From Escherichia phage muut, in sequence record NC_052657.1: 64,000 nt of DNA, one strand, 5' to 3'. The notes beneath the pieces were generated by a model that did not search any database, was not told where the DNA came from, and saw only the letters and a program-made list of their open reading frames with translations. Position numbers and translations under genes: made by a program. Below are positions 13,663-31,658 of this stretch, one piece after another (within the stretch, counting starts at the first letter, position 1; each line of letters opens with the position of its first letter).

Positions 13663-14790
13663 TTAAAACACACTTGCCAAAGTTGCACCATTGGTGATAG
13701 TTGGTTCCAGAACAATACGGAAAGAATCTTCTGGATCATCACTAAACACAACGATTTTACCGCCTGTAATAAGATCTGCTTTCATTTTTGTCGCATTCAA
13801 TGGAATTCGAGCATCGCCTTCATCATCAAAAACCACGTAAGAGCTATTAGCAAGGGCTTCTTTAGAATCTGCATCACTTGGAGATGACAAGTACACGTCC
13901 AGTGTGCACGAACCACCTAAAAAGATTGCAGGTGTGAAGTTATGCCAACTAGATACCCAGCTAACTTTCTGAAGTTTCCCATTAATAACAACACTGCTGA
14001 TATCCCATTTATTACCACCACCTAAAGAAACACCCATCATAGAGATGCATTCTTTAAAGGATAAATCAGGGTAGAAATTAAGTTCTTCTACTATACCTTG
14101 GATCACATCAAAGGACAACTCTAAACTTACATCCCAAAGTCTTTGGAAATTATCAAAGTGTGCTTTGTTATCCAGGTTTTTATCTAAATAGTCCATCATA
14201 GTTTCTAGTGAGATTTTATCATAATTAAAATTATAAAACACACGACTAGGACGATTTAAAAAGAATTCAGAGATAAAGCCACTGTTTTTAGTCAGAATAA
14301 ACAGTTTATTACCACTGCCAGTACCATCTAACAAAGTGAGAAGTGCTTCTTGATCTTGTTTCTTCTCATATACTTTATCAAATTCATCAAAAATAATCAC
14401 TGCTTTGTCTGTGATCTTGCTAATAAGTTCAATGAAATTAGCATCACTGTAGGCTTGAGTAACCATAATAGTTGGAATACCTTCTTCTACAAGGTCACGA
14501 CTAATGAGTTTGGCTAACATAGTTTTACCACTGCCCTTAGTGCCTGTCAGGAGCAAACCTGTATTTTTACCTTGTGCACTCCGGCGATGGAATGTACGAA
14601 TAACGTGATTTGCTCGTTTTTCTGTTTCACCATACAGAACATCCGGTACACCTGTTAGATTACCACGGCTTAAAAAGTAATTGCCAAGGGGATCACGACT
14701 AACAGTATAGAATCCAGGTGGAAGATAGTTAGATTCCACGCCCATATCTTTATTTACACTTACAATATCACCATAAATCGTGTATTTCAT
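13663..14790 (-). CDS. AAA+ ATPase, paralog A
   Basis: Walker A GTKGSGKT, Walker B IIFDEFDK, sensor LTKN, NRPSR; about 45% identical in the ATPase core to 30498..31658. Confidence 0.65.
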   Translation of the reverse strand: MKYTIYGDIVSVNKDMGVESNYLPPGFYTVSRDPLGNYFLSRGNLTGVPDVLYGETEKRANHVIRTFHRRSAQGKNTGLLLTGTKGSGKTMLAKLISRDLVEEGIPTIMVTQAYSDANFIELISKITDKAVIIFDEFDKVYEKKQDQEALLTLLDGTGSGNKLFILTKNSGFISEFFLNRPSRVFYNFNYDKISLETMMDYLDKNLDNKAHFDNFQRLWDVSLELSFDVIQGIVEELNFYPDLSFKECISMMGVSLGGGNKWDISSVVINGKLQKVSWVSSWHNFTPAIFLGGSCTLDVYLSSPSDADSKEALANSSYVVFDDEGDARIPLNATKMKADLITGGKIVVFSDDPEDSFRIVLEPTITNGATLASVF

Positions 14791-14801
14791 TTTAACCCCT
14801 T

Positions 14802-15239
14802 TTATTTTTGTTGAGATGAACGAATTAAATCAGCAGCAAATTCAATCAGATACACTTTTGGTGCAATAATGATTTTTAGCCAATCAAAATTCGAAAAGAA
14901 AATAACAAATCCTAAAAAGAAAAAGAAAGCACAGACAACAAGACCAACAATAGGTAAAGCAGATACTTCACCATAGCGATCTCGTGACCACAGGCATTCT
15001 TTATCTTTAATTGCTTTTACGAGGTTCCGTACAGCAATAAAAGTAATAAACATAAAGCAAATACTAAAAAGTTGCCATAAACCTGCGGATACTGCTTTCC
15101 ACACTAATAATTGATGAATTACTTCTGGAATTTGTTGTTTTCCAAACTCTACAACATCACTCATTGTTTGAATAGTGACGTTAACCATGTTCAGAAGTAC
15201 ATCAGTTGCTTTATCTGCGATTGCGTTTGTTTTACTCAT
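14802..15239 (-). CDS. Hypothetical membrane protein (about 2 TM segments)
   Basis: Hydrophobic stretches LWQLFSICFMFITFIAV and IVGLVVCAFFFFLGFVIFF. Confidence 0.5.
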   Translation of the reverse strand: MSKTNAIADKATDVLLNMVNVTIQTMSDVVEFGKQQIPEVIHQLLVWKAVSAGLWQLFSICFMFITFIAVRNLVKAIKDKECLWSRDRYGEVSALPIVGLVVCAFFFFLGFVIFFSNFDWLKIIIAPKVYLIEFAADLIRSSQQK

Positions 15240-15253
15240 TCTTTATTCCTCAC

Positions 15254-15427
15254 TTACCTTTTAAGGAAACCAATCATAATGAAGAACCACATCCAGGCAG
15301 GAGAGATAATAAAGCCAAAGAAACCGCAAATAACCGCTTTCTTAATCTCTTCCAGACAACCCACCAGGAAAAGAACGAGTGAGACTACAATCCAGATAGC
15401 CATAAATACTGTAACAAAGAAACTCAT
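15254..15427 (-). CDS. Possible small membrane protein (57 aa)
   Basis: Hand-translated MSFFVTVFMAIWIVVSLVLFLVGCLEE...; ribosome-binding site GGGAGAAAGG. Below the track cutoff. Confidence 0.35.
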   Translation of the reverse strand: MSFFVTVFMAIWIVVSLVLFLVGCLEEIKKAVICGFFGFIISPAWMWFFIMIGFLKR

Positions 15428-15447
15428 ACCTTTCTCCCATCTGTATT

Positions 15448-15699
15448 TTAAAATTCAACCACTACTTTATCGAGATGCTCTGCTTCAACTTGATCTAAGG
15501 TTAACACCTCAACTAAACCTTTGTCAATACCTAATTTAATAACATCAACATATTGTCCAAACAGATCCTGAATAGATATCTTGTGTTCGACAACAACCAC
15601 CACTTCATTTCCTTTTGTGAATTCTCTCCATACACGTCCACATTTGAAAATAAAGTCTGCTTCGTCTTCTGTTATCATTTTAGGTTTGATACTTAACAT
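15448..15699 (-). CDS. Hypothetical protein (83 aa)
   Basis: ORF; stop overlaps the start of the downstream gene. Confidence 0.45.
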   Translation of the reverse strand: MLSIKPKMITEDEADFIFKCGRVWREFTKGNEVVVVVEHKISIQDLFGQYVDVIKLGIDKGLVEVLTLDQVEAEHLDKVVVEF

Positions 15700-16250
15700 T
15701 ATAAAACTCCGTACTCCGGCTCAAAATCATATTTTTCACAAATCATATCCCAGCGTTCGTTGCCGAAGCTGCGACCACAAATTGCATCGTAAGCGTAATG
15801 CTCTGCTAACCATTTTACAACAGTGTCTACATCGTTATCAAGTGGTAATCTGAATTCTTTGCCATATCGCATACGAAGAACAAATTCATCCCCTTCTTCA
15901 AACAAGTGCATATGGCTTTTTGCATAAGAAGCCAGGTTGAAAAAAGATACCTCTTCCCAGCATTCTTTTTCCACTGCAATCCCGTGATCAACAACTAAAG
16001 CACCGATAACGCGATACATAATAGGGCTAAACAGTGCGCTTGGGCTAGGCTGCTCTTCAACTATAGACCAACCTGTTCCCTGCCAAATTTCATTTTTGAA
16101 CCATTGTTGCATGTCATTCCCTTTTTCATCTACAATGGATCGGTTACGCATTTCAAACCATTCTCCTTCGCAAAAGTATTTATGTTTAACGCGCTTGCCT
16201 TTTAACATTGCTTCTTTGGCTTCTATCCAAGTCAGATCGGTGTTTTGCAT
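15699..16250 (-). CDS. Hypothetical protein (start trimmed to Met with GAGGAGA ribosome-binding site)
   Basis: N-terminus MQNTDLTWIEAKEAMLKGKRVKH resembles a common small phage domain (DUF2829-like F.EAl.al..GkkvrR); family assignment by recollection only. Confidence 0.5.
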   Translation of the reverse strand: MQNTDLTWIEAKEAMLKGKRVKHKYFCEGEWFEMRNRSIVDEKGNDMQQWFKNEIWQGTGWSIVEEQPSPSALFSPIMYRVIGALVVDHGIAVEKECWEEVSFFNLASYAKSHMHLFEEGDEFVLRMRYGKEFRLPLDNDVDTVVKWLAEHYAYDAICGRSFGNERWDMICEKYDFEPEYGVL

Positions 16251-16369
16251 TCGTTTATCTCCTCTCATTTGTGTATGCATTAAGATTAGCACAATAAAAC
16301 AGTATGTCAATACTTGATCTGAAATTAATTTCTGGTACTCTGTGTGTATCGTAACAAAAGAGGTTAGAT

Positions 16370-16660
16370 ATGAACATCACACTAGCAACTAAGAATATTA
16401 CAGAAACTTTTGATGGTTTTGGCATTATTATTGCTGTTCATGGGCATAACGAAAAATGGTTAGCCTCTTTTGAAGAGGACAAAGAACGCAATGTACGTTT
16501 GAATGCACCAATCAAAGTTTTACACCAGGTAGGTGAGAATAAGAAACAATGGAGATCATACAAAGAGTGGAACATTACGAACGAGTTAATACACAAACTT
16601 GACAAAGTGATAAACATGTTCGACAATGCACCAAGCAGTGCAAAACGTGTTTTACTATAA
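16370..16660 (+). CDS. Hypothetical protein (96 aa); first gene of the plus-strand block
   Basis: ORF with ribosome-binding site AAGAGG; divergent from the minus-strand cassette. Confidence 0.5.
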   Translation: MNITLATKNITETFDGFGIIIAVHGHNEKWLASFEEDKERNVRLNAPIKVLHQVGENKKQWRSYKEWNITNELIHKLDKVINMFDNAPSSAKRVLL

Positions 16661-16671
16661 AGGAGAGTGAT

Positions 16672-17025
16672 ATGAAAATTGTACACGATGAAATTCAATT
16701 TGAAGAGAGTGATCTTCTTGATCTAGATGTGACACTAAGTAAACTGATCTACAATGCACTTTCTGCATATCGTGCAAAAGTGATAGCCACAAACAATGTT
16801 AAAATTCCTAGTGGGTTACTTCGTCGGATGTACCCACACACTAAAGGTGACTATCTACCTTATATGGAAGAACGAGCAGCAGAACACTGGTTAGAAATTC
16901 TTGAAAAAATGGAGTCTTCTTTTAAGGACTCAACTCCACCAGAAGAAGTTAATGAAAAACAGCGGCAAGATCGTTTAGAAGGTCGTATTTTGTTTGCTAA
17001 GTATTTCCATAATCTGTGGATGTAA
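16672..17025 (+). CDS. Hypothetical protein (117 aa)
   Basis: ORF with ribosome-binding site AAGGAGAG. Confidence 0.55.
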   Translation: MKIVHDEIQFEESDLLDLDVTLSKLIYNALSAYRAKVIATNNVKIPSGLLRRMYPHTKGDYLPYMEERAAEHWLEILEKMESSFKDSTPPEEVNEKQRQDRLEGRILFAKYFHNLWM

Positions 17026-17038
17026 TAAGGAGAAAACT

Positions 17039-17206
17039 ATGAGCGAAACCAAGAAACCAATTCCGCGCACTTACCTACACGTTGACCCTGAAATCTTCAA
17101 GGTTTTATTTGCTGAAGCCAAGAAAAGGCAAATTATGGTCAGTGATTTGATGTTAGAAATCATTACTGAAGCAGCAGAGAACATCAAACAAAAAAAGGGT
17201 AAGTGA
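17039..17206 (+). CDS. Hypothetical small protein (55 aa)
   Basis: ATG preceded by TAAGGAGAAAA; the track ORF begins at an upstream TTG. Confidence 0.45.
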   Translation: MSETKKPIPRTYLHVDPEIFKVLFAEAKKRQIMVSDLMLEIITEAAENIKQKKGK

Positions 17207-17257
17207 TCCTCATTCACTTTAGTAGCGCATTAAGCGTGATTTATAAGGAGATTTTTA

Positions 17258-18256
17258 ATGATTAAACATACAAAACCTTTTTTAGGAATAGATTATGACT
17301 TACTAGCAATCACTTCCCTGGTGATTAACGGCAAAACAAAAGAAGTAAAACTACACCATAAGATCATTTATTCTTATTTGTTAAGTTTATCTGGCACATA
17401 CCAAAAGGTAACACCATCTTTGAAAGGTATTGGTGAGCGGTTAGGAGTAGGTACAGATCAGACGGTACGCCGTCATATCAAAGATCTTGTTTCTTTTGGA
17501 TGGTTGAAGATTGAGGAAAGGGCAGGTAGCACAAATGCTTATATTGTCCTTCCTTATGAACAAGAAGCCCAGACACAACAAGAAGCTACTGTTAAAGCTG
17601 TTCCTGATCAGCTTCCCCCTACAGAATGGAAAATGTTTAAAAAATGGTATTCACCATCTGGTAATGAATACACCGCTACACTGCCAGCCGTTGAAATCTA
17701 TAGCTATATAGCTGGATTCAATGAACAAGGGCAAGAATGTTACGCTACTCAAAAAACATTAGCTAATATTGGAATGGTTAGTGATCGTCAGGTACGCAAT
17801 ATTATAAATATGTTTGTTGATATGGGAGTTCTTTCTGTAGAGACACGCCACGGTCAAACATCACTCTATAAAGCATTACCCTTTACAGAGATGAATGTTA
17901 AAAAGCAAAAAAGAGTAAAAGAAATTCCGTACACCGAAAACCAACAATCAAATTGGTGTTTTTATATACAAAAATTGGTTTCTCCGTTTTATACCTGCTT
18001 GAAAGCAGGGATTACGGTAGATATTGATCGTAGAATCAAAGAGCAAAGTAAAAACAGCATGTTTAAGCATTATCTACTTGACAGTTTCAGTGGAGATTAT
18101 GCTACTATTTTCGCTTTGGAGAAAGAAGTTAAAAAATGTTTTAACCGCTCTTTATGCTTAAAAGAGTGGCTACCGGATGGATATACAGAAACATATAATC
18201 TAGAAGATTATGAAAATATAAAAAATTTTGTTAGTGAAAAATTGATTAAGGAGTAA
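17258..18256 (+). CDS. T5orf172 (GIY-YIG-like) domain protein with N-terminal winged-helix-like region
   Basis: C-terminal FYTCLKAGITVDIDRRIKEQ...DGYTETYNLEDYENI parallels the C-terminus of 12398..13588; N-terminus LGVGTDQTVRRHIKDLVSFGWL looks HTH-like. Confidence 0.6.
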   Translation: MIKHTKPFLGIDYDLLAITSLVINGKTKEVKLHHKIIYSYLLSLSGTYQKVTPSLKGIGERLGVGTDQTVRRHIKDLVSFGWLKIEERAGSTNAYIVLPYEQEAQTQQEATVKAVPDQLPPTEWKMFKKWYSPSGNEYTATLPAVEIYSYIAGFNEQGQECYATQKTLANIGMVSDRQVRNIINMFVDMGVLSVETRHGQTSLYKALPFTEMNVKKQKRVKEIPYTENQQSNWCFYIQKLVSPFYTCLKAGITVDIDRRIKEQSKNSMFKHYLLDSFSGDYATIFALEKEVKKCFNRSLCLKEWLPDGYTETYNLEDYENIKNFVSEKLIKE

Positions 18257-18258
18257 AC

Positions 18259-18408
18259 ATGGTTATCTACAAAAATAAGTTCACTGGCTGTCTGCGTAAA
18301 TTTATTGACAAAAAAGGGTATGTTTCTGTTGACAATGGTGTTACGTGGGTACAAAATGGCACTTCAGAACAACTGATCAAGGCTTTACCTTACTATGAGG
18401 AGGTTTAA
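18259..18408 (+). CDS. Possible small protein (49 aa)
   Basis: Hand-translated; ribosome-binding site TAAGGAG. Below the track cutoff. Confidence 0.3.
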   Translation: MVIYKNKFTGCLRKFIDKKGYVSVDNGVTWVQNGTSEQLIKALPYYEEV

Positions 18409-18732
18409 ATGTCCAACAATCTGTTTAGCGTGTCAATTGCACCGCGTGTTAATATTCGCTGTCAGTTTGTTAACTTACCAGGTGTGACACATATCACTTT
18501 AGAGTATGATCCTCGTTCACAAGAGAACCCAATTACAGGCAAGATTGATTCAGCCTACGGCGACTTTCTGATGGATCACCAAGCAATCTTATGTTGTGTG
18601 CAACGCTTACAAGCAGGGTCTTTATACATCTTCAAGAAATCTGTGTTCCAGGAGATTGCTCAAGCGGTTGAGAGTGGTATGGAAACACTTAACAACATGA
18701 TCGAAGCCGCTAACAAAAAGGAGGTTTTATGA
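18409..18732 (+). CDS. Hypothetical protein (107 aa)
   Basis: ORF with ribosome-binding site GAGGAGG. Confidence 0.55.
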   Translation: MSNNLFSVSIAPRVNIRCQFVNLPGVTHITLEYDPRSQENPITGKIDSAYGDFLMDHQAILCCVQRLQAGSLYIFKKSVFQEIAQAVESGMETLNNMIEAANKKEVL

Positions 18733-18986
18733 CACTTTATCATGTAACTACCGAAGGTGATTGCGAAGGTCGTACCACAAAAGATTTAGGGTATGTCGAA
18801 GCAGATTCGCCTGAACATGCAATTAAGTATCTGCACTCTATTGGTAAGTATGCTTATTATGAATATTATATCCATGAAATTGAGGAAAATCCTATACAAG
18901 TAGCAACACCTATGGTAGAGTTGGAACATCTTAAAGCAAAAGTTAAAACTGGCAGCACATCTGGATTTAAGGGGGTAGTACAATGA
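18729..18986 (+). CDS. Hypothetical protein (85 aa)
   Basis: ORF; ATGA overlap with the previous gene. Confidence 0.5.
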   Translation: MTLYHVTTEGDCEGRTTKDLGYVEADSPEHAIKYLHSIGKYAYYEYYIHEIEENPIQVATPMVELEHLKAKVKTGSTSGFKGVVQ

Positions 18987-19252
18987 AAATTCGTGATAAT
19001 ATTGCAGACTACATTGTAACTTGTGAAGATGGTACAGACGTTTTGCTTCCGCAACCAATTGTTTGGGAGGATGGTGAAATGTACCGTATAGCTACGGAAC
19101 ATTATAAAGGTATTGACATTAAAGCTCTTTGTGCTATGCTTGTCGAAGATCAAGAATCTGATCTCTCAGTTGTAACATATCAAGATGTGTATGAAATCTG
19201 TGAAACTTTACTACAAATGCATGAAGATGGACAAGAGGTGTTTCCAAAATGA
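18983..19252 (+). CDS. Hypothetical protein (89 aa)
   Basis: ORF; ATGA overlap with the previous gene. Confidence 0.5.
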   Translation: MKIRDNIADYIVTCEDGTDVLLPQPIVWEDGEMYRIATEHYKGIDIKALCAMLVEDQESDLSVVTYQDVYEICETLLQMHEDGQEVFPK

Positions 19253-19449
19253 CAGAATGGGTAAAAGTAGAAGACCCATACGATATCCCACTAGGTGAGT
19301 ATGTGGTGGTAATGGAAGATGGTGGAAAAGGGTATTGTGAAGTGCATAAAAGTATGTCTGGTAAGATTATTGTGGTGAACCATCATTTTCACTTTGATTA
19401 CCCTCCTATTGTGGCATATATGCCTTTACCTAAATATGAAGGGGATTAA
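19249..19449 (+). CDS. Hypothetical protein (66 aa)
   Basis: ORF; ATGA overlap with the previous gene. Confidence 0.5.
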   Translation: MTEWVKVEDPYDIPLGEYVVVMEDGGKGYCEVHKSMSGKIIVVNHHFHFDYPPIVAYMPLPKYEGD

Positions 19450-19596
19450 ATGTTATTCTTTAGACTTAATATTGCTTTTTGTTTGTTTGCAAACATTGCA
19501 TTCTGGGTATTGGGTAGTGTAAAATTAGGCTACTTCTTTATTGTACTACAAGCTATTTGTTTAGCTGGTCAAATAATCACTAAGGGGCGAGTATGA
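19450..19596 (+). CDS. Possible small membrane peptide (48 aa)
   Basis: Hand-translated MLFFRLNIAFCLFANIAFWVLGSVKLGYFFIVLQAICLAG...; fills the gap between tightly packed genes. Confidence 0.3.
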   Translation: MLFFRLNIAFCLFANIAFWVLGSVKLGYFFIVLQAICLAGQIITKGRV

Positions 19597-20021
19597 CACA
19601 ACAAATCCAAGATAAATTTAATGAACTCTATCCAGCAAGCGAAAGCGGCACTCATAACGTGCGTAAATCGCTCTATAACGTCTTTAAAGCAGGATGGGAG
19701 GCTTGCCTTCAGGCTCAAGAAAAACCAGTGTCAGGGACGCGTAACGGCTTTTATATCCCGATTGTTGAAAGTGAGGAAGGATGGGGTAGCAAACATGATG
19801 GTTATATGGTAGGATTCACCATAGAAGATCTTGAAGAACGCCGTAAAGTCTTTGAGGCAGCTAATACAGAAAAGTATGGCTACTATTATGAACGACCTGT
19901 TCGTTACATTCCTGTTGTGCTTAGTCCTAAAGCTGTTGAAACAATGTCTGCAACAGAAAAAGAAAGGACTCGCCATTGTGTATGGTTTGATGATATTGAC
20001 GATTTTCGATTTGGAGAATAA
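19593..20021 (+). CDS. Hypothetical protein (142 aa)
   Basis: ORF. Confidence 0.55.
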   Translation: MTQQIQDKFNELYPASESGTHNVRKSLYNVFKAGWEACLQAQEKPVSGTRNGFYIPIVESEEGWGSKHDGYMVGFTIEDLEERRKVFEAANTEKYGYYYERPVRYIPVVLSPKAVETMSATEKERTRHCVWFDDIDDFRFGE

Positions 20022-20024
20022 TTT

Positions 20025-20297
20025 ATGAAAAATAAACACCCTTACTATCAACTATTGCATGTACTGCGCCGATTGCGCAATAAGCAGATTGAAGATTTCC
20101 GTCACTTCAAGCGTGATCGTGTGAATCGTCAATGGATGGATCATCGTTTCTTCTCTTTAACTGTACGTAAGTTCCGTGAAGAGATTAAGAAGACAGACCA
20201 GGTAATTGCAGGTGCTAAACGTGCAATCTCTATGTCAAAAATCACAGGTGTAAATCATATGTACGACTTCAAAACAGATTCTGTTGTACCTATGTAA
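20025..20297 (+). CDS. Hypothetical basic protein (90 aa)
   Basis: ORF. Confidence 0.5.
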   Translation: MKNKHPYYQLLHVLRRLRNKQIEDFRHFKRDRVNRQWMDHRFFSLTVRKFREEIKKTDQVIAGAKRAISMSKITGVNHMYDFKTDSVVPM

Positions 20298-20461
20298 AAG
20301 TATTTTGTAAAGTTTTGTGGAGAGTATTGACTTTTTCAGAAAAACATGCTACCCTAAACCTGAAAGGTGACGAGCGAAGCGAGTTAGTATTCTCTATAGA
20401 TATTGTTCCTGTCACTCATGGAGGGGCAGGAACAGAGTATATTACTGTATAGGAGAATACT

Positions 20462-20728
20462 ATGGATGTTACTACACTAAGGTTTATACTTCTCTTCTTA
20501 CTTATAGTTATAGGTTTAATTGTTATACCATATCTATATGTCTACATGTTATCTCGTAAGTATGGTTATGATCGTATACCATTTTACTATTTAATACCTG
20601 TCTTAGTTATCTATCTATTTCTCTTTTGTAGATATTGTCCTGAACTAGTTCCTGAACACTGGAAGTTAGAACCTGTTGAAGTTTACCATTGTGAATGGAA
20701 GACAGAATACAGATCTAACAGTAATTAG
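20462..20728 (+). CDS. Hypothetical membrane protein (88 aa)
   Basis: Hydrophobic segments LRFILLFLLIVIGLIVIPYLYVYML and LIPVLVIYLFLF. Confidence 0.5.
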   Translation: MDVTTLRFILLFLLIVIGLIVIPYLYVYMLSRKYGYDRIPFYYLIPVLVIYLFLFCRYCPELVPEHWKLEPVEVYHCEWKTEYRSNSN

Positions 20729-20788
20729 TTATTGACTCTATCTACTAAATAATCTAGACTCTATGTAAAATTTACTAAGGAGACTACT

Positions 20789-20953: not shown

Positions 20954-20963
20954 GGAGTAGATT

Positions 20964-22077: not shown

Positions 22078-22098
22078 TAAACCAATAAGGAAAATATA

Positions 22099-23100: not shown

Positions 23101-25875
23101 ATGGCTAAGAAAGAGTTGAGCTTCACTCCAACAGAAGAGCAAACAGCTATTAAGGAGGCTTTTCCAGACCATCGCTTTTTAACTATCCAAGCTAAATCTG
23201 GATCAGGCAAAACGTCAACACTTTATTTGCTGGCTAACAGTACAGAAGATCGCATTCTTTACTTAGCTTTCAATAAAAGCATGGCAGAAGAAGCACGACG
23301 TAAGATGCCACCAAATGTAGAATGCCGTACATTGCATTCTATTTGCTATCAATTCCTGGATCATCGTTTACGTGCAAAACTGTCACGACCAGAAGGACAG
23401 TATGTTAACGTTGCAGGTACAGGTAGTGAGATAGCAAAGAAATTTAAGATTAATAATCTTATTGATAAACGAGGGAAAACACTTTTAACTCGTGCCATGA
23501 TTGGTTTAATGATCAAGCAAACAGTAGGTAAGTTTGAATTTTCGGATGATCCTTTTATCAGCCGTAAACATTTTCCTAGTGTACATCTTGCAGATATTAA
23601 AAGAAAAGGTATTAACGAACACAAACTAATTACAGAAGTAGTTAAGTATGCAAAACAATTGTGGCGAGAGCGCATTGATCCTAATACAGATACTTTGATG
23701 ACGCATGACACCTATGTAAAATTGTTTGAATTGTCTGGTGCTGATCTTGGTTATGATATTATTTTTGGTGATGAATTCCAGGATGTTAACCCTGCATTCT
23801 TGTCTATTTTGCGAAATGCTAAATCTGCAAAACAAATTGTGGTAGTTGGCGATGAATTCCAATGTGTGTCAGAAAACACGGTACTTAATACCGAGAATGG
23901 TCAGGTTACAATGAAAGACCTGCAAATCGGTGATAAGGTAGAGTCTTATTCTAATGGTAAAGTTACATTTAGAAAAGTAACAAATAAAACTTTATCTACA
24001 CGTACAAAAGGTAGGAATATTATTACTACTAAAGGTAAAACTTTAGATATGACACATAATCATCGTATTTGGGCTTCACCTTATGTTCTGAAAGATGATC
24101 AAATGGTGGTATATCTAATGTGGAGGAAAGATTTAGGTTTCCGAGTAGGAATTACTAACAAATTCGATGATAAAGAAGGTTTTTCTAAACTGGGGCAACG
24201 TACACGTTCTGAAAAAGCACAGAAATTATGGGTGTTGGATATTGTTGAAAATCGCGAAGCTGCTATGGAAAAAGAAATGGCATACAGTTTACAATATGGC
24301 ATTCCTACTTGTGTATTTGAAGCAAGTTCACGCGGCATTAATCAAGAAAGGATCAATAACATCTTTGAACAATTCGGACAAAATGGTTTTAAACTTTTAG
24401 AGGATAAAGATTATCATTTTGCTTATCCACACTGGCACAGCATCAATTGTGCAGTAGATGAAAGAAAAATGCTAACAGTGACTTTGCGAGCACAAGGTTG
24501 TAAAGGAACACAAGTTAGTTTTGAGTGGACAGAAAGTGAAATGCCGATCTATTCTTCACTGATTAAAGCAGGTGTAAGCGTAAGTGCTGCTAAATTGGAA
24601 GGTCGTTACCGTGTACGTAAATATTTCAATTCTTATCGTGAAGCATTGAGTTTTGCACAAAAGATCCTTGAAATAGTTCCGTTTGCATCTTTAAAAGAAT
24701 GCATGTCCTCTGTGAACAGTGCCAAATATAACTTAATTCCGGCAGCGGGTTTGTTTAAAGGCATGTCTGTGTTGGTAAAAGATGGTGATACTGTAACGGC
24801 AGAAGAGATTGTGGACATTGTAGATAGTGAGGGTATCTATTATGATATTGAAGTAGAGGATACTGCTAACTTCTTTGGCAATGAAATTCTTAGCCACAAC
24901 TGCATTTATCAATTTAGAGGTAGCTCTAATATGATGATTGAAACAGCTAAGTATGGGGCAGAACTTCCATTAACTGCTTGCTTCCGTTTTGGCCCCAAAG
25001 TGGCAAACATTGCCAATATGATTTTAAGCGATAAAGAACCTTTGCGTCATCCTTTGGTTGGTAAAGGCTTTGATACTGTAGTAGGTAGCTACAAATCAGA
25101 TGTTGTAGACTATACAAAACCTTACACTATCATCTTTCGCAAGAATTTAACCTTGCTTATGGAGGCAATGGATCGTATTGCAGATGGGGAAGAAATTATT
25201 ATTAACGTAGATACCAGGGATTTTATCTCTATGGTAGATAGTGTTAATGCTCTTCGGAGAGGAGATATTGAGAAAGTAAAACATGAAACTGTATTACCTT
25301 ACGCAGACTGGGATGAATTTGTTGAGTGTGCAGAGGCTGATCCAGATGCTAAACGCTTGTTAAACATCGTAGTTTCTGGTAAGGCGAACACTATAGCACA
25401 TACACTTAGAACGCATAGAAATTCTCCTACAGCAAAAGTCACACTTACTACAGCACACAAGTCTAAAGGTTTGGAGTGGGATCAGGTTATTGTTGCTAAT
25501 GATTTTCCTTCCAACTATGATAAAAAGACTGGTGAATGGGTAGGACTGGAAGAGGCAGAGCGAAACCTACTGTATGTAGCGCATACCCGTTGTGTTAAAT
25601 GCTTACAATGGAACACAACCGTACAGGAGATTATAGATATCAATCGTGTTGCAACAGAGAAAGTACCAACAAGCACCACTTTACCGATCAATGGTATTAA
25701 ACTTGGTGTATTTGGCGCTGGCACATCTCGAAAAACTGTAGAAAAATTTGTTGCAGATTCTTTTGATGGTAACTATAATCATGCACAAGCATATGAGAGT
25801 TGGCTAGAGGAAGGTGAAGGTGATTTCTTAGGTGAAATAAATCTTTTACCAGACATAAATAAACTGGTAAACTAA
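23101..25875 (+). CDS. UvrD/PcrA-like SF1 DNA helicase precursor interrupted by an intein
   Basis: Walker A AKSGSGKT, motif II FGDEFQDVN, motif III split as GDEFQ | intein | CIYQFRG, C-terminal TLTTAHKSKGLEWDQVIV. Start trimmed to MAKKEL (ribosome-binding site AAGAGAGG). Confidence 0.75.
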   Translation: MAKKELSFTPTEEQTAIKEAFPDHRFLTIQAKSGSGKTSTLYLLANSTEDRILYLAFNKSMAEEARRKMPPNVECRTLHSICYQFLDHRLRAKLSRPEGQYVNVAGTGSEIAKKFKINNLIDKRGKTLLTRAMIGLMIKQTVGKFEFSDDPFISRKHFPSVHLADIKRKGINEHKLITEVVKYAKQLWRERIDPNTDTLMTHDTYVKLFELSGADLGYDIIFGDEFQDVNPAFLSILRNAKSAKQIVVVGDEFQCVSENTVLNTENGQVTMKDLQIGDKVESYSNGKVTFRKVTNKTLSTRTKGRNIITTKGKTLDMTHNHRIWASPYVLKDDQMVVYLMWRKDLGFRVGITNKFDDKEGFSKLGQRTRSEKAQKLWVLDIVENREAAMEKEMAYSLQYGIPTCVFEASSRGINQERINNIFEQFGQNGFKLLEDKDYHFAYPHWHSINCAVDERKMLTVTLRAQGCKGTQVSFEWTESEMPIYSSLIKAGVSVSAAKLEGRYRVRKYFNSYREALSFAQKILEIVPFASLKECMSSVNSAKYNLIPAAGLFKGMSVLVKDGDTVTAEEIVDIVDSEGIYYDIEVEDTANFFGNEILSHNCIYQFRGSSNMMIETAKYGAELPLTACFRFGPKVANIANMILSDKEPLRHPLVGKGFDTVVGSYKSDVVDYTKPYTIIFRKNLTLLMEAMDRIADGEEIIINVDTRDFISMVDSVNALRRGDIEKVKHETVLPYADWDEFVECAEADPDAKRLLNIVVSGKANTIAHTLRTHRNSPTAKVTLTTAHKSKGLEWDQVIVANDFPSNYDKKTGEWVGLEEAERNLLYVAHTRCVKCLQWNTTVQEIIDINRVATEKVPTSTTLPINGIKLGVFGAGTSRKTVEKFVADSFDGNYNHAQAYESWLEEGEGDFLGEINLLPDINKLVN
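23863..24900 (+). mobile_element. Intein (about 346 aa) inserted in helicase motif III
   Basis: Begins with Cys (CVSENTVLNT), has a block-B-like T-x-x-H (MTHNH), ends in SHN followed by extein Cys+1; excision restores GDEFQ-CIYQFRG. No LAGLIDADG recognised by eye. Confidence 0.6.
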
Positions 25876-25885
25876 GGGGGTTAAA

Positions 25886-26137
25886 GTGGCAGGGTATCAT
25901 CTGAAGGAGATTAGCAAAGAGGAATATGGTTCTGTTGCTAAGATTCAAGAAGAGCTTTATGAACTTCAGGATGCTATTGATCAAGATTGCAAGCTGATGC
26001 AACTTATTGAGTTATCAGATATTGTAGGCGCTGTTGAAGGTGTTCTTGAACAGCATTTTCCTGATATGACGCTTCAAGATTTGATCACTATGTCGAACAT
26101 TACTAAACGTGCATTCCGCAATGGAGGTCGCTCATGA
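25886..26137 (+). CDS. MazG-like nucleotide pyrophosphohydrolase (small all-alpha type)
   Basis: EExxE...ExxD arrangement (QEELYELQD ... IELSDIVGAVEGV). Confidence 0.45.
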   Translation: MAGYHLKEISKEEYGSVAKIQEELYELQDAIDQDCKLMQLIELSDIVGAVEGVLEQHFPDMTLQDLITMSNITKRAFRNGGRS

Positions 26138-26706
26138 ATGTTGAAGTAATAGCTCAAGCTATTGATTACTATGGTCGGTTTGCACAAATGTTGGAAGTTC
26201 CATATCTCGTGGATGCTGATATACTGGCGTACACACTACCAGAAAATAAAGAGGATCGCCCATTAGGGCATCCTAACGGTAAATATTATGTAGCCAGTGC
26301 AGAACAATCTTTCCTGCAAATGGAGAAGGATGGTTTTGAATTTGCAGCAGGTAATCCTTATATGGCACTAACACCATGTTACCGTACAGAAGAAAATTTA
26401 GATGATACTCATTTTAATATTTTCTTGAAATTGGAGTTGATTGAGTTCTATCCTGATGCTACAATTGAAGAGTATGCTAACTCTATGCGCTGTTTCTTCT
26501 CTACTTACTATGGAGTTAAAACATATTTAGTACCCACTAATATTGGGGTTGACGTAGAAGATGAATATGGTTTAGAATTAGGTTCATTCGGTATAAGGGA
26601 GTCTCCAAAAGGTCATCCTTATATCTATGCAACAGGTATTGCGGAGCCTAGGGCTTCACTGGCAATAAACCGTGTTGTAAATAAGATTCAAAGCATTAGC
26701 AAATAA
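26134..26706 (+). CDS. Hypothetical protein (190 aa)
   Basis: ORF; ATGA overlap with the previous gene. Confidence 0.5.
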   Translation: MNVEVIAQAIDYYGRFAQMLEVPYLVDADILAYTLPENKEDRPLGHPNGKYYVASAEQSFLQMEKDGFEFAAGNPYMALTPCYRTEENLDDTHFNIFLKLELIEFYPDATIEEYANSMRCFFSTYYGVKTYLVPTNIGVDVEDEYGLELGSFGIRESPKGHPYIYATGIAEPRASLAINRVVNKIQSISK

Positions 26707-26718
26707 GAGGAGAATAGA

Positions 26719-27153
26719 ATGTCTATTGTGACACAAATGAAAGCAGATCGTATCTTAGCACGTACAACCGATAAGGGTGCTTTTGCTTTGTTAACTAATA
26801 TTATTGGTGAGTTTGACCTTGCTCGTACTCAAAAGGCAAATCTAAATAAATCAGAAGATGATATTATGATTAACATTGTTAAGATTGGTATTGCACACGC
26901 TAAAGAGGAACTAGACTCGCTTAAGAAAGTTAATGCCTCCATTAGCAAATGTGAGCGAGCTATGCGTGATATCACCATTCTGGAAAAATATTTGCCAGAA
27001 ATGCTATCTGAAGATGATCTTCGAGCTATTGCTGAAGAATTTGCCTTGACAGGCAAGAAAATGCCAGATATGATGAAACACCTTAAAGCAGAGTATCCGA
27101 ATCAATATGATGGAAAACTTGCTTCTACCATTGCAAAAGAAATTTTAAACTAA
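26719..27153 (+). CDS. Hypothetical protein (144 aa)
   Basis: ORF with ribosome-binding site GAGGAGAA. Confidence 0.5.
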   Translation: MSIVTQMKADRILARTTDKGAFALLTNIIGEFDLARTQKANLNKSEDDIMINIVKIGIAHAKEELDSLKKVNASISKCERAMRDITILEKYLPEMLSEDDLRAIAEEFALTGKKMPDMMKHLKAEYPNQYDGKLASTIAKEILN

Positions 27154-27170
27154 TTTAGAAGGAGAACATA

Positions 27171-28121
27171 ATGATTGCATTTTACGCTAATAAACTGGAA
27201 GTTAAAAAAGCAGCAGAAGAGATGGGTATCCTGCATATTCTTAACGAAGCAATTCACAAGAGTTTTGGTTACACAACTGAAGCAGAAATCAATGATCTGA
27301 TTCACAGTGTTAATGATTTGTTCTTCTACCCTAACTTTCTACAGCAGTTAGATGGTTGTGGATTTGAATATATGGAGCTTCATCCTGAATATACATTTAT
27401 GGAAGTAACACCTGAAGGTTTTCTGGAGATTATTCGTACTGAATATCTTGCTAAAGAGGATAAAGAAAAAGATATGGCTGAAAAAGTACAACTGACTGTG
27501 CATAATACGTGTTTCCTGGATACTGAGGCCACGGAAGAAAATATTAATTATCTGCTTTCCGTTTGTAATCCTCGTTGTCCACAACCACATTGGAAAAATG
27601 CAGATCATTATCTAATGTATTCAACTGAAGAAAACATTACTTTCTTCGATGAAAACAGTGGTATTAATGGTGCACATAAGAATTCTCCATATAGGAAAGA
27701 TCGGTTTGTAGTTGATGTAAAAACATTTACTAAACTGTTTGAGGAGTATTATTCAAAAAATGAAAGTAAGACTGAATCTTCACCAAAACCACGTTTTCGC
27801 CGACCGCGTAAACCTGTGCCTACTCGTTCTGTAAGTTATGTTCGTATCATTTACACTACGCAGCAGGTATATACTCTTAAGAACGTAAGCACTCTTACTG
27901 TACAAGAAGATGTAATTAATATTGTGCGTAATAATGTTATTACAGAGGGTATTGAGGAAAAGATTATGTCTGTTATCGATCCTAAACTTGTTATGGCAAT
28001 CATTATTAATGAACCAAAAGGTGTAACAACATTGTTCCGAAATATTCATGGTACTTGGGAAACTCAAGTTGACGGTTTGACTTCTGACGGTTGTACACGT
28101 ATTACCAAAAACCTTGACTAA
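27171..28121 (+). CDS. Hypothetical protein (316 aa)
   Basis: ORF with ribosome-binding site GAAGGAGAA. Confidence 0.55.
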   Translation: MIAFYANKLEVKKAAEEMGILHILNEAIHKSFGYTTEAEINDLIHSVNDLFFYPNFLQQLDGCGFEYMELHPEYTFMEVTPEGFLEIIRTEYLAKEDKEKDMAEKVQLTVHNTCFLDTEATEENINYLLSVCNPRCPQPHWKNADHYLMYSTEENITFFDENSGINGAHKNSPYRKDRFVVDVKTFTKLFEEYYSKNESKTESSPKPRFRRPRKPVPTRSVSYVRIIYTTQQVYTLKNVSTLTVQEDVINIVRNNVITEGIEEKIMSVIDPKLVMAIIINEPKGVTTLFRNIHGTWETQVDGLTSDGCTRITKNLD

Positions 28122-28168
28122 GATCAAGGACAATCTTACGAAAAAGATTTAAAATAAAGATCCACCCT

Positions 28169-28198
28169 AAAGCCAGCTTAATGCTGGCTTTTATTTTC
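28169..28198 (+). terminator. Rho-independent terminator (AAGCCAGC-ttaa-TGCTGGCTT + T-run)
   Basis: Perfect stem followed by TTTATTTT. Confidence 0.6.
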
Positions 28199-28210
28199 CA
28201 CGGAGGATTA

Positions 28211-30010
28211 ATGACCCAAAAACTATATGAGGATGTAATCGGATTCCTCGAACAAACATCCGAAGAATTTACTCGTGAAAATGCAAACAAACCTGCAATG
28301 ATTGTTAATACTCACCGAGACTTACTAGCAGGTATCCTAAGCAAGCACATGGCAATGACCCATATTTTACCGGAAGATCTAGCAGAATGGCATAAAAGTG
28401 GGTATGGTCACATTCACGATTTAGATTATTTACTCTCACCTCTAACTAATTGTTGCCTGGTAAATTACCAAGATATGCTTGAGAACGGTTTCCGTATTGG
28501 TAATGCACATATTGAAAAACCAAAATCTATTGGCGTAGCAACTACTGTCCTAACTCAAATTATTCAAGCAGTAGCTTCTAGCCAATATGGTGGACAAACT
28601 TGTGCACATATTGATACTGGGCTTAGTCAATACGTTAAAGCAAGTTTTAACAAAATATATGCCGATGTTGGCGATTATGATATTGCTATGCGTATGGTAG
28701 ATAAACAGGTTTACGATGCAATGCAAACTTTAATCTACCAGGTGAACACCCTAATGAGTGTAAATGGTCAGTCACCTTTTATAACAATTAGTTTAGGTTT
28801 GGATACCTCTGCTTTTGGTAGAATGATCACTAAAAACTACCTAATGGTGCACAAACAAGGATTAGGAAAAGATAGGGTAACTCCTGTGTTTCCTAAAGTT
28901 ATCTTCTTCTTGGAAGATGGTGTTAACATGAAAGCTGGCGATCCAAACTATGATTTGAAGCAACTGGCAATGGAGTGTTGTGCTGAACGCATTTATCCTG
29001 ATTTTATCTCTGTACCTTTAAACAAAGAAGTTACAGGATCTTCAGATGGTCGCGTCACAAGCATGGGTTGCCGTAGTTTCTTGTCATACTATGCAACAGA
29101 GCAAGGTGAAAAATATGATGGTCGTTTCAATTTAGGCGTAGTTTCTTTAAACTTACCTATCATTGCAGCAGAGTCCCGTGAAAAGGGCATCTTATTTACT
29201 GAACTGTTGGAACAACATATGGAGATGGCGTATAAGGCACATATGCTACGTGTTAACCGTATTAGACATACCAAAGCATCTCAAAACCCTACATTGTTTA
29301 TGGAAGGGGCTTTAGCTCGACTAGAAGCTAATGAAGAGATTGGTAAACTATTCGAAGGTGGTTATGCCTCTATTAGTATCGGTTATGTAGGTTTAGCAGA
29401 AGCTATGGAGATTTTATACCCAGGTAACACCAATCCAAAAGCAATGGGTAAAAACATCCTTCAATATATGAAGGATATCTGTGGCACATTTAAAGAACGT
29501 TCTGGTTTAGCTTTTAGTTTGTATGGAACACCAGCAGAATCCTTGTGCTATAAATTTGCCAAAGCATTAAATGATCGCTATCCTGGTTCTATTGATCGTG
29601 ACTACTTGACAAACTCTTTCCATCAACCTGTGTGGATGCACACTACCCCGTTCCAAAAGTGGGATTATGAGGAAGGTTTTGCACAAATCAGTAATGGTGG
29701 GAACATAGGTTATGTAGAAACACCAAACCTTAAAAATAACTTGCAAGCACTGGAAACTCTTGTAGATTATGCCTACAACAAAATTCCTTATTTTGGCGTG
29801 AACCAACCTGTAGATCAGTGTTTCAAATGTGGTTTTCATGGTGAATTTAAGGCAACAGCTAAAGGCTTCGAGTGTCCAAGTTGTGGCAATCATGAGGAAG
29901 AATCTATATCTGTAATCAGAAGAGTGTCAGGATATCTTTCTGCCCCTAACTCTCGCCCTTATAATAAAGGTAAAATGCAAGAGGTATTAGAAAGGGAGAA
30001 ACATTTTTGA
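28211..30010 (+). CDS. nrdD: Anaerobic ribonucleoside-triphosphate reductase (class III)
   Basis: C-terminal glycyl-radical motif RVSGYLS and zinc ribbon CFKCGF...CPSCG; size consistent; followed by nrdG. Confidence 0.8.
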   Translation: MTQKLYEDVIGFLEQTSEEFTRENANKPAMIVNTHRDLLAGILSKHMAMTHILPEDLAEWHKSGYGHIHDLDYLLSPLTNCCLVNYQDMLENGFRIGNAHIEKPKSIGVATTVLTQIIQAVASSQYGGQTCAHIDTGLSQYVKASFNKIYADVGDYDIAMRMVDKQVYDAMQTLIYQVNTLMSVNGQSPFITISLGLDTSAFGRMITKNYLMVHKQGLGKDRVTPVFPKVIFFLEDGVNMKAGDPNYDLKQLAMECCAERIYPDFISVPLNKEVTGSSDGRVTSMGCRSFLSYYATEQGEKYDGRFNLGVVSLNLPIIAAESREKGILFTELLEQHMEMAYKAHMLRVNRIRHTKASQNPTLFMEGALARLEANEEIGKLFEGGYASISIGYVGLAEAMEILYPGNTNPKAMGKNILQYMKDICGTFKERSGLAFSLYGTPAESLCYKFAKALNDRYPGSIDRDYLTNSFHQPVWMHTTPFQKWDYEEGFAQISNGGNIGYVETPNLKNNLQALETLVDYAYNKIPYFGVNQPVDQCFKCGFHGEFKATAKGFECPSCGNHEEESISVIRRVSGYLSAPNSRPYNKGKMQEVLEREKHF

Positions 30011-30477
30011 ATTACGCCGGATATGAACCTGTTGACATGCTCAACGGTGACGGTGTAAGATGCTCTTTGTGGGTGAGCGGTTGTAGCCACGGTTGCCGTG
30101 GCTGCTTTAACCAGAAAGCCTGGTCGTATAACTACGGACAAGAGTTCACTACTGAAACATTAGATCTTATCTTGAAAGATTTATCTCGACCTTTCATTAA
30201 AGGATTAACAGTTTTAGGTGGTGAACCTCTTGACAAAGAGAACATTGACACTGTAGCGTATGTTCTTGAGAAGGTAAGAGATTGTTTTGGAAACAAAAAA
30301 GATATTGTCTTATACACAGGATATCTTTTTGAAGAAATTCCAGAGAAAATTAAAAAACTGGTTGACATAGTGATAGATGGTAAGTATGATATGAATCAAC
30401 CAACAACGAAACGTTATAGAGGCTCAGATAATCAACGAATGTGGGTTAAGAAAGACAACATTTGGGAATCTGACTAA
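30007..30477 (+). CDS. nrdG: Anaerobic ribonucleotide reductase activating protein (radical SAM)
   Basis: N-terminus (M)NYAGYEPVDMLNGDGVRCSLWVSGCSHGCRGCFN closely parallels E. coli NrdG; TTG start overlaps the nrdD stop. Confidence 0.8.
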   Translation: MNYAGYEPVDMLNGDGVRCSLWVSGCSHGCRGCFNQKAWSYNYGQEFTTETLDLILKDLSRPFIKGLTVLGGEPLDKENIDTVAYVLEKVRDCFGNKKDIVLYTGYLFEEIPEKIKKLVDIVIDGKYDMNQPTTKRYRGSDNQRMWVKKDNIWESD

Positions 30478-30497
30478 ATTAAATAGAGGAGAAAACT

Positions 30498-31658
30498 ATG
30501 TTTACAGTATTCGGCAATCAAATCTTCCTGCGTCAGAAATCTGGTACAGATATTGAAGAAATTCCAGCAGGAACTTTTGGTGTAGGTGTTACTCAAAGTG
30601 GTGAGTTCTTCCTGTATCCTAAAAACGATATGGAAGTGCCTTCAGTAACATACGGTGATACTGATGATAAATCAGAACGTATTATCAAAACGTTCCTTAG
30701 CCGCAAAGGTAAAAACACAGGTGTTCTCCTTGAGGGTACGAAAGGTAGCGGTAAAACTTTGCAAGCTAAAATGCTGTCTTCTGCTCTTCGTGAAATGGGT
30801 ATTCCTACTATTTCTATCGGCAGTGCTTTTAATGGCGAAGGTTTTATCAATTTTATGTCTAAAATCACACAACCTGTGATGATTATGATCGATGAATTTG
30901 ATAAACTGTATGCTGAAAAAGATGCACAAGATGGTTTGCTTACCCTGTTGGATGGTGTTGGTGGCTACGACAAACTGTTTGTATTGACTAAAAATGATGG
31001 TTATGTATCAGAATTTTTGCGTAATCGTCCTAGCCGTATTTTCTACAGTTTTAGCTATAAGAAACTACCTAAAGCTACTATGGATGATTATCTGGCTAAA
31101 AATCTGGAGAACAAAGCCTTCTTACCAGATTTTGAAACGCTTTATAATCTCTCCGTGGATTTGAACTTTGATATTGTTCAGTCATTAGTAGAAGAACTTA
31201 ACCGTTACCCTAATGACAAATTCTCTGATGCACTTGCATTGATGGGTATCAGTATTACTGAACACCGCTATGCTGCAAAAGAGGTTAAACTTCTGAAAGT
31301 TAACGGTGTAGATCGTACAGGAGATGTTTCGTCAGATACCGATATTGACGGTATGACAGCACAAGGTTTGTTTAGCGGTAATCGTTATGTTGTAGCTGTA
31401 GACCATAAACTAGGTGAAGAGCATCTTCCTGAAATGGAAGGGATTGTTACCGTAGAAGATAAAGATGAAGAAGGTGACTACTACTGGGGTGTAGACCGTA
31501 TCTTGCTAACGTATGATGAAAAACACATTCGTACAATGGGTGGTGACGGTTATCACTTTATGTTCACCGATGATAAAGGTAACAACATTGAAGTTGTTAT
31601 TAAAAACAAAGAACGTAAAAACTACACAGAGTATGTGTTTGGTGGTCGTTCTTACTAA
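30498..31658 (+). CDS. AAA+ ATPase, paralog B
   Basis: GTKGSGKT, IMIDEFDK, LTKN, NRPSR; paralog of 13663..14790 with a divergent C-terminal domain. Confidence 0.65.
   Translation: MFTVFGNQIFLRQKSGTDIEEIPAGTFGVGVTQSGEFFLYPKNDMEVPSVTYGDTDDKSERIIKTFLSRKGKNTGVLLEGTKGSGKTLQAKMLSSALREMGIPTISIGSAFNGEGFINFMSKITQPVMIMIDEFDKLYAEKDAQDGLLTLLDGVGGYDKLFVLTKNDGYVSEFLRNRPSRIFYSFSYKKLPKATMDDYLAKNLENKAFLPDFETLYNLSVDLNFDIVQSLVEELNRYPNDKFSDALALMGISITEHRYAAKEVKLLKVNGVDRTGDVSSDTDIDGMTAQGLFSGNRYVVAVDHKLGEEHLPEMEGIVTVEDKDEEGDYYWGVDRILLTYDEKHIRTMGGDGYHFMFTDDKGNNIEVVIKNKERKNYTEYVFGGRSY

Follow-up and report, generated by a model that had tools for sequence, protein, structure and literature searches.

The window analyzed in the present study is a stretch of 64,000 nucleotides from Escherichia phage muut (NC_052657.1), in which two genes, here called ATPase A and ATPase B, lie on opposite strands and in different surroundings (Table 1). 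Both had been proposed from the sequence alone to encode paralogous AAA+ ATPases, and the two open reading frames (ORFs) were found exactly where this original prediction had placed them. The encoded proteins are identical at 119 of 254 aligned positions (47%, with 70% positives; aa 3-256 of A against aa 2-253 of B; BLASTP E-value 2e-81), which agrees with the predicted value of approximately 45% over the N-terminal 250 aa, and nothing significant was aligned by BLASTP past approximately aa 256. Since the whole N-terminal two thirds are alike, a similarity limited to the P-loop motifs is ruled out by the alignment and the observation of paralogy is confirmed; as judged from their sequences, A and B are genuine paralogues within a single AAA family.

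Profile searches assigned both proteins at full length to the same family, PHROG 2376 ('ATPase'), with E-values of 8.4e-108 for A (aa 1-367 on profile positions 1-357 of 363) and 5.8e-104 for B (aa 1-376 on profile positions 2-359 of 363). The pair is not new in itself because dozens of GenBank genomes have both genes labeled 'ATPase' and their family is catalogued as a PHROG. In the records of the phages vB_EcoM_ESCO32 (ESCO32) and arall, the orthologues already carry the labels 'putative ATPase or Zn metalloprotease', 'FtsH-like protease' or 'ATPase'.

The window belongs to a phi92-like myovirus of E. coli (Caudoviricetes, Stephanstirmvirinae, Justusliebigvirus; approximately 147 kb). The nearest genomes measure approximately 145-150 kb, and the earlier description of a compact phage genome was not supported. 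The best match in GenBank depends on the region, being arall around A (13000..16000, 98.8%) and ESCO32 around B (29500..32500, 100%), and the spacing between A and B is approximately 950 bp greater than in ESCO32, which indicates that the window is a mosaic relative identical to none of the records checked.

Table 1. Coordinates of the two ATPase genes, their predicted domains and neighboring features in the window
Feature	Coordinates	Strand	Remarks
NADAR-domain gene	11846..12397	minus	PF08719, E 5e-36; 1.27 kb downstream of A; link to A by context only
CapR (three domains)/treble-clef Zn finger/T5orf172 protein	12398..13588	minus	PHROG 681 'endonuclease'; directly downstream of A
ATPase A, whole ORF including stop codon	13663..14790	minus	375 aa; PHROG 2376 AAA ATPase
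A, C-terminal beta-rich domain (aa 257-375)	13666..14022	minus	Aromatic tail ..SVF
A, tail (aa 371-375)	13666..13680
A, four-helix lid (aa 191-256)	14023..14220	minus	Helices 195-205, 209-221, 227-239, 245-252
A, AAA alpha/beta core (aa 56-190)	14221..14625	minus	All catalytic motifs
A, N-terminal small beta domain (aa 1-55)	14626..14790	minus	Strands 3-6, 9-12, 18-20, 27-32, 38-43
Putative GIY-YIG-type (T5orf172/MUG113) protein	17258..18256		Two HTH_36 domains
316-aa gene	27171..28121		Conserved upstream neighbor of B orthologues; PHROG 15930 'ribonucleotide reductase'
Terminator-like hairpin	28169-28191		9-bp stem; consensus match only
nrdD-nrdG	28181..30477	plus	Directly upstream of B
ATPase B, whole ORF including stop codon	30498..31658	plus	386 aa; PHROG 2376 AAA ATPase
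B, N-terminal small beta domain (aa 1-54)	30498..30659	plus	Strands 2-5, 8-11, 17-19, 26-31, 37-42
B, AAA core (aa 55-187)	30660..31058	plus	All catalytic motifs
B, four-helix lid (aa 188-253)	31059..31256	plus	Helices 192-202, 206-218, 224-236, 242-248
B, C-terminal beta-rich domain (aa 254-386)	31257..31655	plus	Diverged homologue of the A C domain
Terminator-like hairpin	31665..31686	plus	Directly after B; 9-bp stem with 5 G-C pairs, T-rich tail; consensus match only
HAD hydrolase	32048..32722	plus	Downstream of B (Pfam)
PRTase_3 ComF-like	32715..33572	plus	Annotated in other records as 'orotate PRTase' or 'DNA methyltransferase'
Macro-domain gene	33565..34281	plus	Annotated 'phosphatase'; 1.9 kb from B

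Domain Architecture and the Diverged C-Terminal Domains

In the AlphaFold2 (AF2) models, which had mean predicted local distance difference test scores of 90.7 for A and 86.3 for B, five strands (approximately aa 1-45) form the N domain of each protein and are followed by a linker, helix alpha0, the AAA core, the lid and the C domain. The N domain is kept across the family, with P24, L40, Y53 and G54 being nearly invariant, and F227, D228 and N238 of the lid are invariant (A numbering). Full-length structural matches in BFVD, with 380-436 aligned columns and template modeling (TM) scores of 0.6-0.78, came from the proteins of very distant phages, namely jumbo, 7-11-like, Atu_ph07 and Lactobacillus phages, and the three-domain plan is, therefore, a property of the family. 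Searches of Pfam with the N and C domains alone, and of the PDB with the C-domain profile, yielded no match. An apparent match between A aa 201-291 and the effector domain of influenza NS1 (E ~8e-4) was not recovered with the family profile and is attributed to chance.

The C-terminal domains of A and B had been regarded as different, an interpretation that was not upheld. Profile-profile comparisons of the A-clade and B-clade C domains by hhalign gave a probability of 96% (E 5e-9) when eight lid residues were included and 69.5% (E 4e-5) for the strict domain, while each of the two matched the C domain of a third clade, consisting of 368-aa proteins, at 92-96%. The joint family alignment is colinear (VNGK/VNGV, F/L-x-G, an acidic DDEGD loop, GGK/GxDG and FRIVLEP/IEVVIK), and the order of strands and helices is identical in the AF2 models. 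According to these profiles and models, the two C domains are beta-rich, fast-diverging homologues of 120-130 aa. Orthologues of B are 88-90% identical over aa 1-253 and approximately 48% identical in the C domain, while those of A are approximately 82% identical in the N part and 34-62% identical in the C domain. The C domain thus diverges two to four times as fast as the ATPase core, which makes distinct substrates for A and B, as originally suggested, plausible.

In 78 of 128 family members, the protein ended in an aromatic residue, commonly after Ala (..AF, ..VF and ..AW); in B, YVF is followed by GGRSY. This aromatic C-terminal end may represent a docking tail.

Distribution of the Family and Origin of the Pair

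An exhaustive profile search (E<=1e-30) placed 3,327 clusters at 50% identity in the family, while two word-indexed searches returned 298 and 132 clusters, and nearly all of 150 listed members were 350-440 aa in length. Members were present in 372 GenBank phage records, including those of Stephanstirmvirinae, the jumbo phages CBB, GAP32, BF and fHe-Yen9, Salmonella phage 7-11 and the Aeromonas LAh phages. Further carriers were found among Herelleviridae (phiEF24C, A9 and Bacillus BCP78-like phages), Lactococcus 949-like phages, and Lactobacillus, Microbacterium, Microcystis and Ochrobacterium phages. The sole member seen with a 'bacterial' label was located on a jumbo-phage-like contig of 371 kb. 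The family is large and phage-specific, and is confined to large virulent phages. A and B share their length, three-domain architecture and motifs with PHROG 2376 members such as phiEF24C ORF215, Brochothrix A9 gp41, phAPEC8_00252, CBB_377 and GAP32 gp367, and nothing defining distinguishes them from these other members, the presence of two copies per genome being the unusual point.

The longest members of the family were scanned for informative domain fusions, and only an apparent intein and unannotated extensions were found. The apparent intein was observed in a metagenomic protein of 727 aa (P0340), in which a LAGLIDADG homing-endonuclease domain (PF05204, PF14528) splits the N-terminal part from the remaining AAA core, and its insertion inside the ATPase is a sign of a constrained gene.

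Two copies per genome were found in Justusliebigvirus, in the Klebsiella-infecting Stephanstirmvirinae phages phi1_175008, FKP3, KP2025 and KP13-26, and in at least two Lactobacillus phages (LpeD and Lpa804). Phapecoctavirus (phAPEC8, ESCO5 and others) carries the A orthologue only, at 64.5% identity. After A, a gene of approximately 395 aa, which in the window encodes the CapR/T5orf172 protein, is found in the window as well as in phAPEC8, and the remaining block is only loosely comparable. Around B, the order in Justusliebigvirus is the 316-aa gene, nrdD, nrdG, B, a 67-aa gene, HAD, PRTase_3 and macro. The same order without nrdDG is present in Klebsiella phage phi1_175008 and in two metagenomic loci (L014 and L016), while in phAPEC8, nrdD and nrdG are directly followed by the small gene and the slot of B is empty. 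These three states of synteny indicate that B and nrdDG are independent insertions or deletions (indels) at one hotspot, and, therefore, a location after nrdDG is not a conserved functional pairing. The contexts given in the original prediction, namely A beside the zinc-finger/T5orf172 and NADAR genes and B after nrdDG, were accurate as a description, but the latter does not hold as a meaningful context.

In a neighbor-joining tree of the N-terminal 256 residues (200 bootstraps), the A, B and 368-aa clades were supported at 98, 100 and 100%, respectively. The B and 368-aa clades were joined at 57%, A, B and the 368-aa clade at 70%, and this group and the jumbo-phage clade at 78%. Both copies are old within Stephanstirmvirinae, and we favor, as the simplest interpretation and with moderate support from a simple tree-building method, an old duplication in the ancestor of the approximately 150-kb myoviruses followed by the loss of B in Phapecoctavirus. 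The acquisition of B from another phage lineage by horizontal transfer, rather than its duplication in the ancestor of Stephanstirmvirinae, appears rather unlikely. It would fit the identity between the N parts of A and B (47%), which is no closer than that of either to the jumbo-phage clade (47-49%), as well as the absence of B from the syntenic slot in Phapecoctavirus, the indel hotspot at the junction of nrdG, B and the small gene, and the bootstrap value of only 70% for the monophyly of A, B and the 368-aa clade. However, neighbor-joining trees unite these three clades and keep them apart from the jumbo and environmental clades, each of the three is robust in itself, and every known sequence of the B type or the 368-aa type comes from a phage contig of approximately 145-155 kb.

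Catalytic Motifs and Position Within AAA+ Proteins

The predicted motifs GTKGSGKT, TKN and RPSR were present in both proteins: Walker A at A 83-90 and B 80-87 (lysines K89 and K86), sensor-1 TKN at A 167-169 (N169) and B 164-166 (N166), and RPSR at A 180-183 and B 177-180, with the arginine fingers R180/R183 in A and R177/R180 in B. The predicted xIFDEFDK form of Walker B fits A only (IIFDEFDK, D135/E136) because B has IMIDEFDK (D132/E133). An LDG motif is located at A 154-156 and B 151-153. Across the 128 sequences, the Walker A Gly and Lys, the Walker B Asp-Glu, the sensor-1 Asn and the two arginines of the second region of homology were invariant. Among the lid residues (A columns 191-256), no Arg or Lys was invariant or nearly so, which indicates that a sensor-2 arginine is absent. 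The pore-loop-1 column was aromatic in 110 of the 128 sequences and was followed two residues on by Gly (83) or Asp (30), with T, C, S or H as the middle residue across the family; the corresponding residues are Y114-S115-D116 in A and F111-N112-G113 in B.

The sole Pfam match above threshold was PF00004 (38.9 bits, E 1.4e-9 for A and 29.4 bits, E 1.2e-6 for B; cutoff 21.2 bits). When A and B were themselves compared with PDB sequences, the matches were weak and reflected generic P-loop or AAA similarity. In a search of the 128-member profile against all PDB sequences, the best among the matches listed was the D2 module of p97/Cdc48 (7e-12), followed by VAT, NVL, Rix7, AFG2, PEX1 and Bcs1 (3.5e-7). 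In the profile alignments, LLTLLDG is paired with LLTEMDG and RP[SG]R with RPGR of p97. The top Foldseek matches were Bcs1 (5e-9), YjoB, Rpt and FtsH, at identities of 13-20%, which represents a generic likeness only. The AF2 models show a minimal AAA core that lacks a helix-2 insert, a pre-sensor-1 hairpin and any initiator-specific motif, and, according to DSSP, the beta2-alpha2 junction in both models is a loop of only six residues (A 111-116), where the profile is gapped against p97.

Taken together, these sequence profiles and structural models very probably place the family within the classical AAA clade, of which it is a compact and divergent representative. With p97/Cdc48 D2, NVL/Rix7, AFG2, Rpt/PAN and the FtsH module, it shares Walker A and B, the LL..(M/L)DG helix-3 motif, the sensor-1 Asn, RPxR with two arginines, the absence of the sensor-2 Arg and, in most members, an aromatic residue at the position of pore loop 1. 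It differs from p97 in its shorter beta2-alpha2 linker and post-Walker-B segment, and from classical AAA proteins in its pore loop, which reads Ar-[TCSH]-[GD] instead of Ar-hydrophobic-Gly (Ar, aromatic), as well as in its unique flanking N and C domains. A search of A and B against the PADLOC defense models yielded mad8 as the best match (E 3.6e-4, 18 bits), in the P-loop region only.

Bcs1 is a mitochondrial AAA translocase of the folded Rieske protein. It was the best single structural match to both AAA modules, and it likewise has a single AAA module after a non-AAA N domain. If A and B were phage orthologues of Bcs1, they would be assembly chaperones or translocases and would transport folded proteins while virions are assembled near the membrane, a role that has been proposed for jumbo-phage AAA+ proteins termed 'phage BCS1' (Iyer et al.). 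The identity of the latter with the present family is likely, but unproven because that paper names no accession. CBB encodes a second AAA protein. We consider a Bcs1-like function unlikely. A and B have no membrane anchor (maximum Kyte-Doolittle mean over 19 residues of approximately 1.0), no BCS1_N match was found at E<=1 with the full proteins or the isolated N domains, and, for these reasons, the family is not Bcs1; moreover, it has an extra C-terminal beta domain. Bcs1 also ranked well below p97 D2 in the profile search, its structural lead over Trip13 and NSF was marginal, and the genes are surrounded by early, accessory and nucleotide-metabolism genes outside the structural modules.

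Some GenBank and PHROG labels imply a replication accessory factor, such as a clamp loader, a helicase loader or a DnaA/Hda-like protein, which appears very unlikely. All NCBIfam matches of A and B were far below their cutoffs (Hda, 29.8 vs. 194.8; IstB, 19.9 vs. 200; RFC/DnaX, 12-13 vs. 250-303 bits), and the PDB matches of the profile were dominated by classical AAA proteins. LLTLLDG and RPxR are found in place of the SRC motif of clamp loaders, the AF2 model of A has no initiator-specific helical insert between alpha2 (117-125), which passes straight into beta3 (130-134), and the latter, the sensor-2 arginine is absent, and the C domain is beta-rich instead of a helical collar. Thus, the possibility that both proteins map to a well-known phage replication-factor family was not borne out by the profile and fold searches, which place them in the classical AAA clade.

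An FtsH-like ATP-dependent protease, as suggested by annotations of orthologues in ESCO32, Paula and the BASEL phages and by FtsH AAA modules among the structural matches, is scarcely credible and, as a self-contained protease, is already refuted because A and B lack an HExxH motif, an M41 peptidase domain and transmembrane helices, and the lid is followed by a beta-rich domain of 120-130 aa with no sequence match in Pfam or the PDB.

Gene Neighborhoods Across the Family

Eighty IMG/VR loci with relatives of the ATPase were collected, their ORFs were called and all neighbors were clustered. Counts are given by loci and by ATPase groups (56 groups at 80% identity); a second count, based on seeded phmmer and aragorn searches within a radius of 6 kb, covered 77 loci in 50 groups at 70% identity. 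No universal partner gene was found among the clustered neighbors, the most frequent being macro-domain genes (17 loci, 14 of 56 groups) and NAMPT (14 loci, 12 of 56 groups), with NadM-Nudix at 10 loci (9 of 56 groups). A co-directional cassette of NadM-Nudix, macro, NAMPT and ATPase recurred and was confirmed by Pfam (L031, L044, L051, L063, L020, L042, L045 and L070). NAMPT was located directly upstream of the ATPase and co-directional with it at eight loci, at which the intergenic gaps were 74-95 bp and the ATPases were 51-76% identical to one another. As a background, NAMPT is present in 1,977 of 50,697 phage records.

Within 6 kb, genes related to nicotinamide adenine dinucleotide (NAD+) or ADP-ribose were found at 25 of 77 loci (18 of 50 groups), transfer RNA (tRNA) or RNA-repair genes at 26 loci (18 groups), and either kind at 46 loci (31 groups). 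tRNA genes were present in 17 of 60 scanned loci and a transfer-messenger RNA (tmRNA) gene in one more, and several arrays extended on both sides of the ATPase. In Ochrobactrum phage OC (L089), the order is NadM-Nudix .. NadV .. PnuC-NadR-ATPase-HD .. Pnk-Rnl1-Pnk .. macro. More than 30 tRNA genes form an array around the ATPase of Microbacterium phage Pumpernickel (L090), close to which a macro-like gene and RtcB are also located. The ATPase of Microcystis phage Mel-JY01 is followed by an RNA ligase and then a tRNA gene, and tRNA genes flank or lie directly upstream of the ATPase in CBB (L004) and phiEF24C (L005). In Salmonella phage 7-11, a Prs-like and NAMPT-like pair of the NARP1 type is present approximately 6 kb from the ATPase. 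Three further loci (L049, L062 and L068) were observed with the ATPase inside or bordering large tRNA arrays, sometimes with RtcB, an RNA ligase or Pnk adjacent.

Members of the family are thus often, but not obligatorily, found in the accessory region of large phages, together with genes for NAD+ reconstitution, ADP-ribose reversal, tRNA and RNA repair. The NAD+ reconstitution pathways NARP1 and NARP2 (bioRxiv 10.1101/2024.02.11.579819), NARP3 (PMC13464706) and a macro-domain phosphatase that extends NARP1 (bioRxiv 10.64898/2026.01.28.702374) are described in these papers as phage counter-defenses. An ATPase is not mentioned in the NARP1/2/3 and aRES papers that were checked.

Neighbors of A and B in the Window

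In the region of A, the protein encoded directly downstream and the second putative GIY-YIG-type protein listed in Table 1 may be homing-endonuclease-like or regulatory. Two terminator-like hairpins bracket nrdD, nrdG and B, which suggests one transcription unit. The HAD-PRTase_3-macro block (32048..34281) is kept across Stephanstirmvirinae, in which it neighbors the B orthologues, and may represent a pathway for nucleotides or ADP-ribose derivatives. No tRNA genes were found in the window.

The label 'ribonucleotide reductase', which the 316-aa gene carries in PHROG 15930 and in several GenBank records, looks unsupported; no match of this gene was found in Pfam or among PDB sequences. The same gene was 98.4% identical in MG065650.1 and MG065645.1 ('Campylobacter phage B15' and 'A145'), two GenBank records that are near-identical to E. 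coli Stephanstirmvirinae and the ATPase of which is 64.5% identical, as in Phapecoctavirus. Mislabeling of the host as Campylobacter jejuni, or contamination of the samples, is the probable explanation.

Discussion

A and B are anciently diverged paralogues of a phage-specific, single-module AAA family of the classical clade (PHROG 2376), and we consider it somewhat probable that they act as ATP-driven protein remodelers encoded in an early accessory or counter-defense region. The intact catalytic residues, the aromatic pore-loop residue, the classical AAA fold and the constraint on the gene point to ATP-driven protein remodeling as the most likely activity. By analogy with other classical AAA proteins, A and B may assemble into rings, in which ATP hydrolysis would provide the energy to unfold or disassemble a protein target or to pull on it; we see an about even chance for such remodeling by a ring. 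The N domain, which is conserved, would form a collar or docking surface, the fast-diverging C domain, perhaps with the aromatic tail, would set the target or partner, and A and B would then act on different targets through their very different C domains. Single-module AAA remodelers are known from prokaryotes, with Bacillus subtilis YjoB and bacterial Trip13 being among the top structural matches. Trip13, a HORMA remodeler associated with the cyclic oligonucleotide-based antiphage signaling system (CBASS), shows how an ATPase of this kind can switch off an immune complex by disassembling it.

The location of the genes among early and accessory genes and the recurrence of genes for NAD+ salvage (NAMPT, NadM-Nudix and NadR/PnuC), macro or NADAR domains, tRNA and RNA repair in their neighborhood suggest that the role of A and B would be in host take-over or counter-defense, and not in replication or virion assembly. 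A counter-defense role is a tentative proposal, and a direct link to NAD+/ADP-ribose immunity is improbable at present.

Several points weigh against this interpretation. The beta2-alpha2 linker is short and has no helical insert typical of classical AAA proteins, the middle residue of the pore loop is small or polar, and Asp replaces the glycine in A; a threading mechanism is, therefore, not assured. The neighborhood counts have no matched control and are inflated by shared ancestry, such that they partly reflect phylogenetic inertia, and approximately 40% of the groups had no NAD+/ADP-ribose, tRNA or RNA-repair neighbor. An obligatory unit of NARP2 and the ATPase was rejected as an explanation because Acidovorax phage ACP17 and Roseobacter phage DSS3P8 have NARP2, with a closely related NAMPT, in the absence of the ATPase. 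Promoter scans were at or below chance and provided no information on the timing of expression, and a literature search identified no experimental work on any member of PHROG 2376.

The remodeler interpretation may be extended to a dedicated remodeling arm of phage counter-defense against NAD+/ADP-ribose immunity, in which a ring ATPase, often encoded immediately after NARP2/NARP3-type NAD+ reconstitution genes and macro or NADAR hydrolases, would strip or unfold a host NADase or ADP-ribosyltransferase effector, or a tRNA-targeting nuclease complex, and the fast-evolving C domain would recognize the effector. We regard this extension as a long shot; if it is true, the Justusliebigvirus paralogues would be specialized for two host targets, one tied to NADAR and the other to the macro domain.

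The family comprises thousands of diverse members with intact catalytic machinery and two flanking domains that are described in no database, and its recurrent neighbors have all been shown or proposed to counter host defenses. Its repeated placement next to genes for NAD+ reconstitution, macro or NADAR domains, tRNA and RNA repair makes it a reasonable candidate for a new counter-defense or host-take-over activity, and both paralogues are present in the genetically tractable Justusliebigvirus phages of BASEL.

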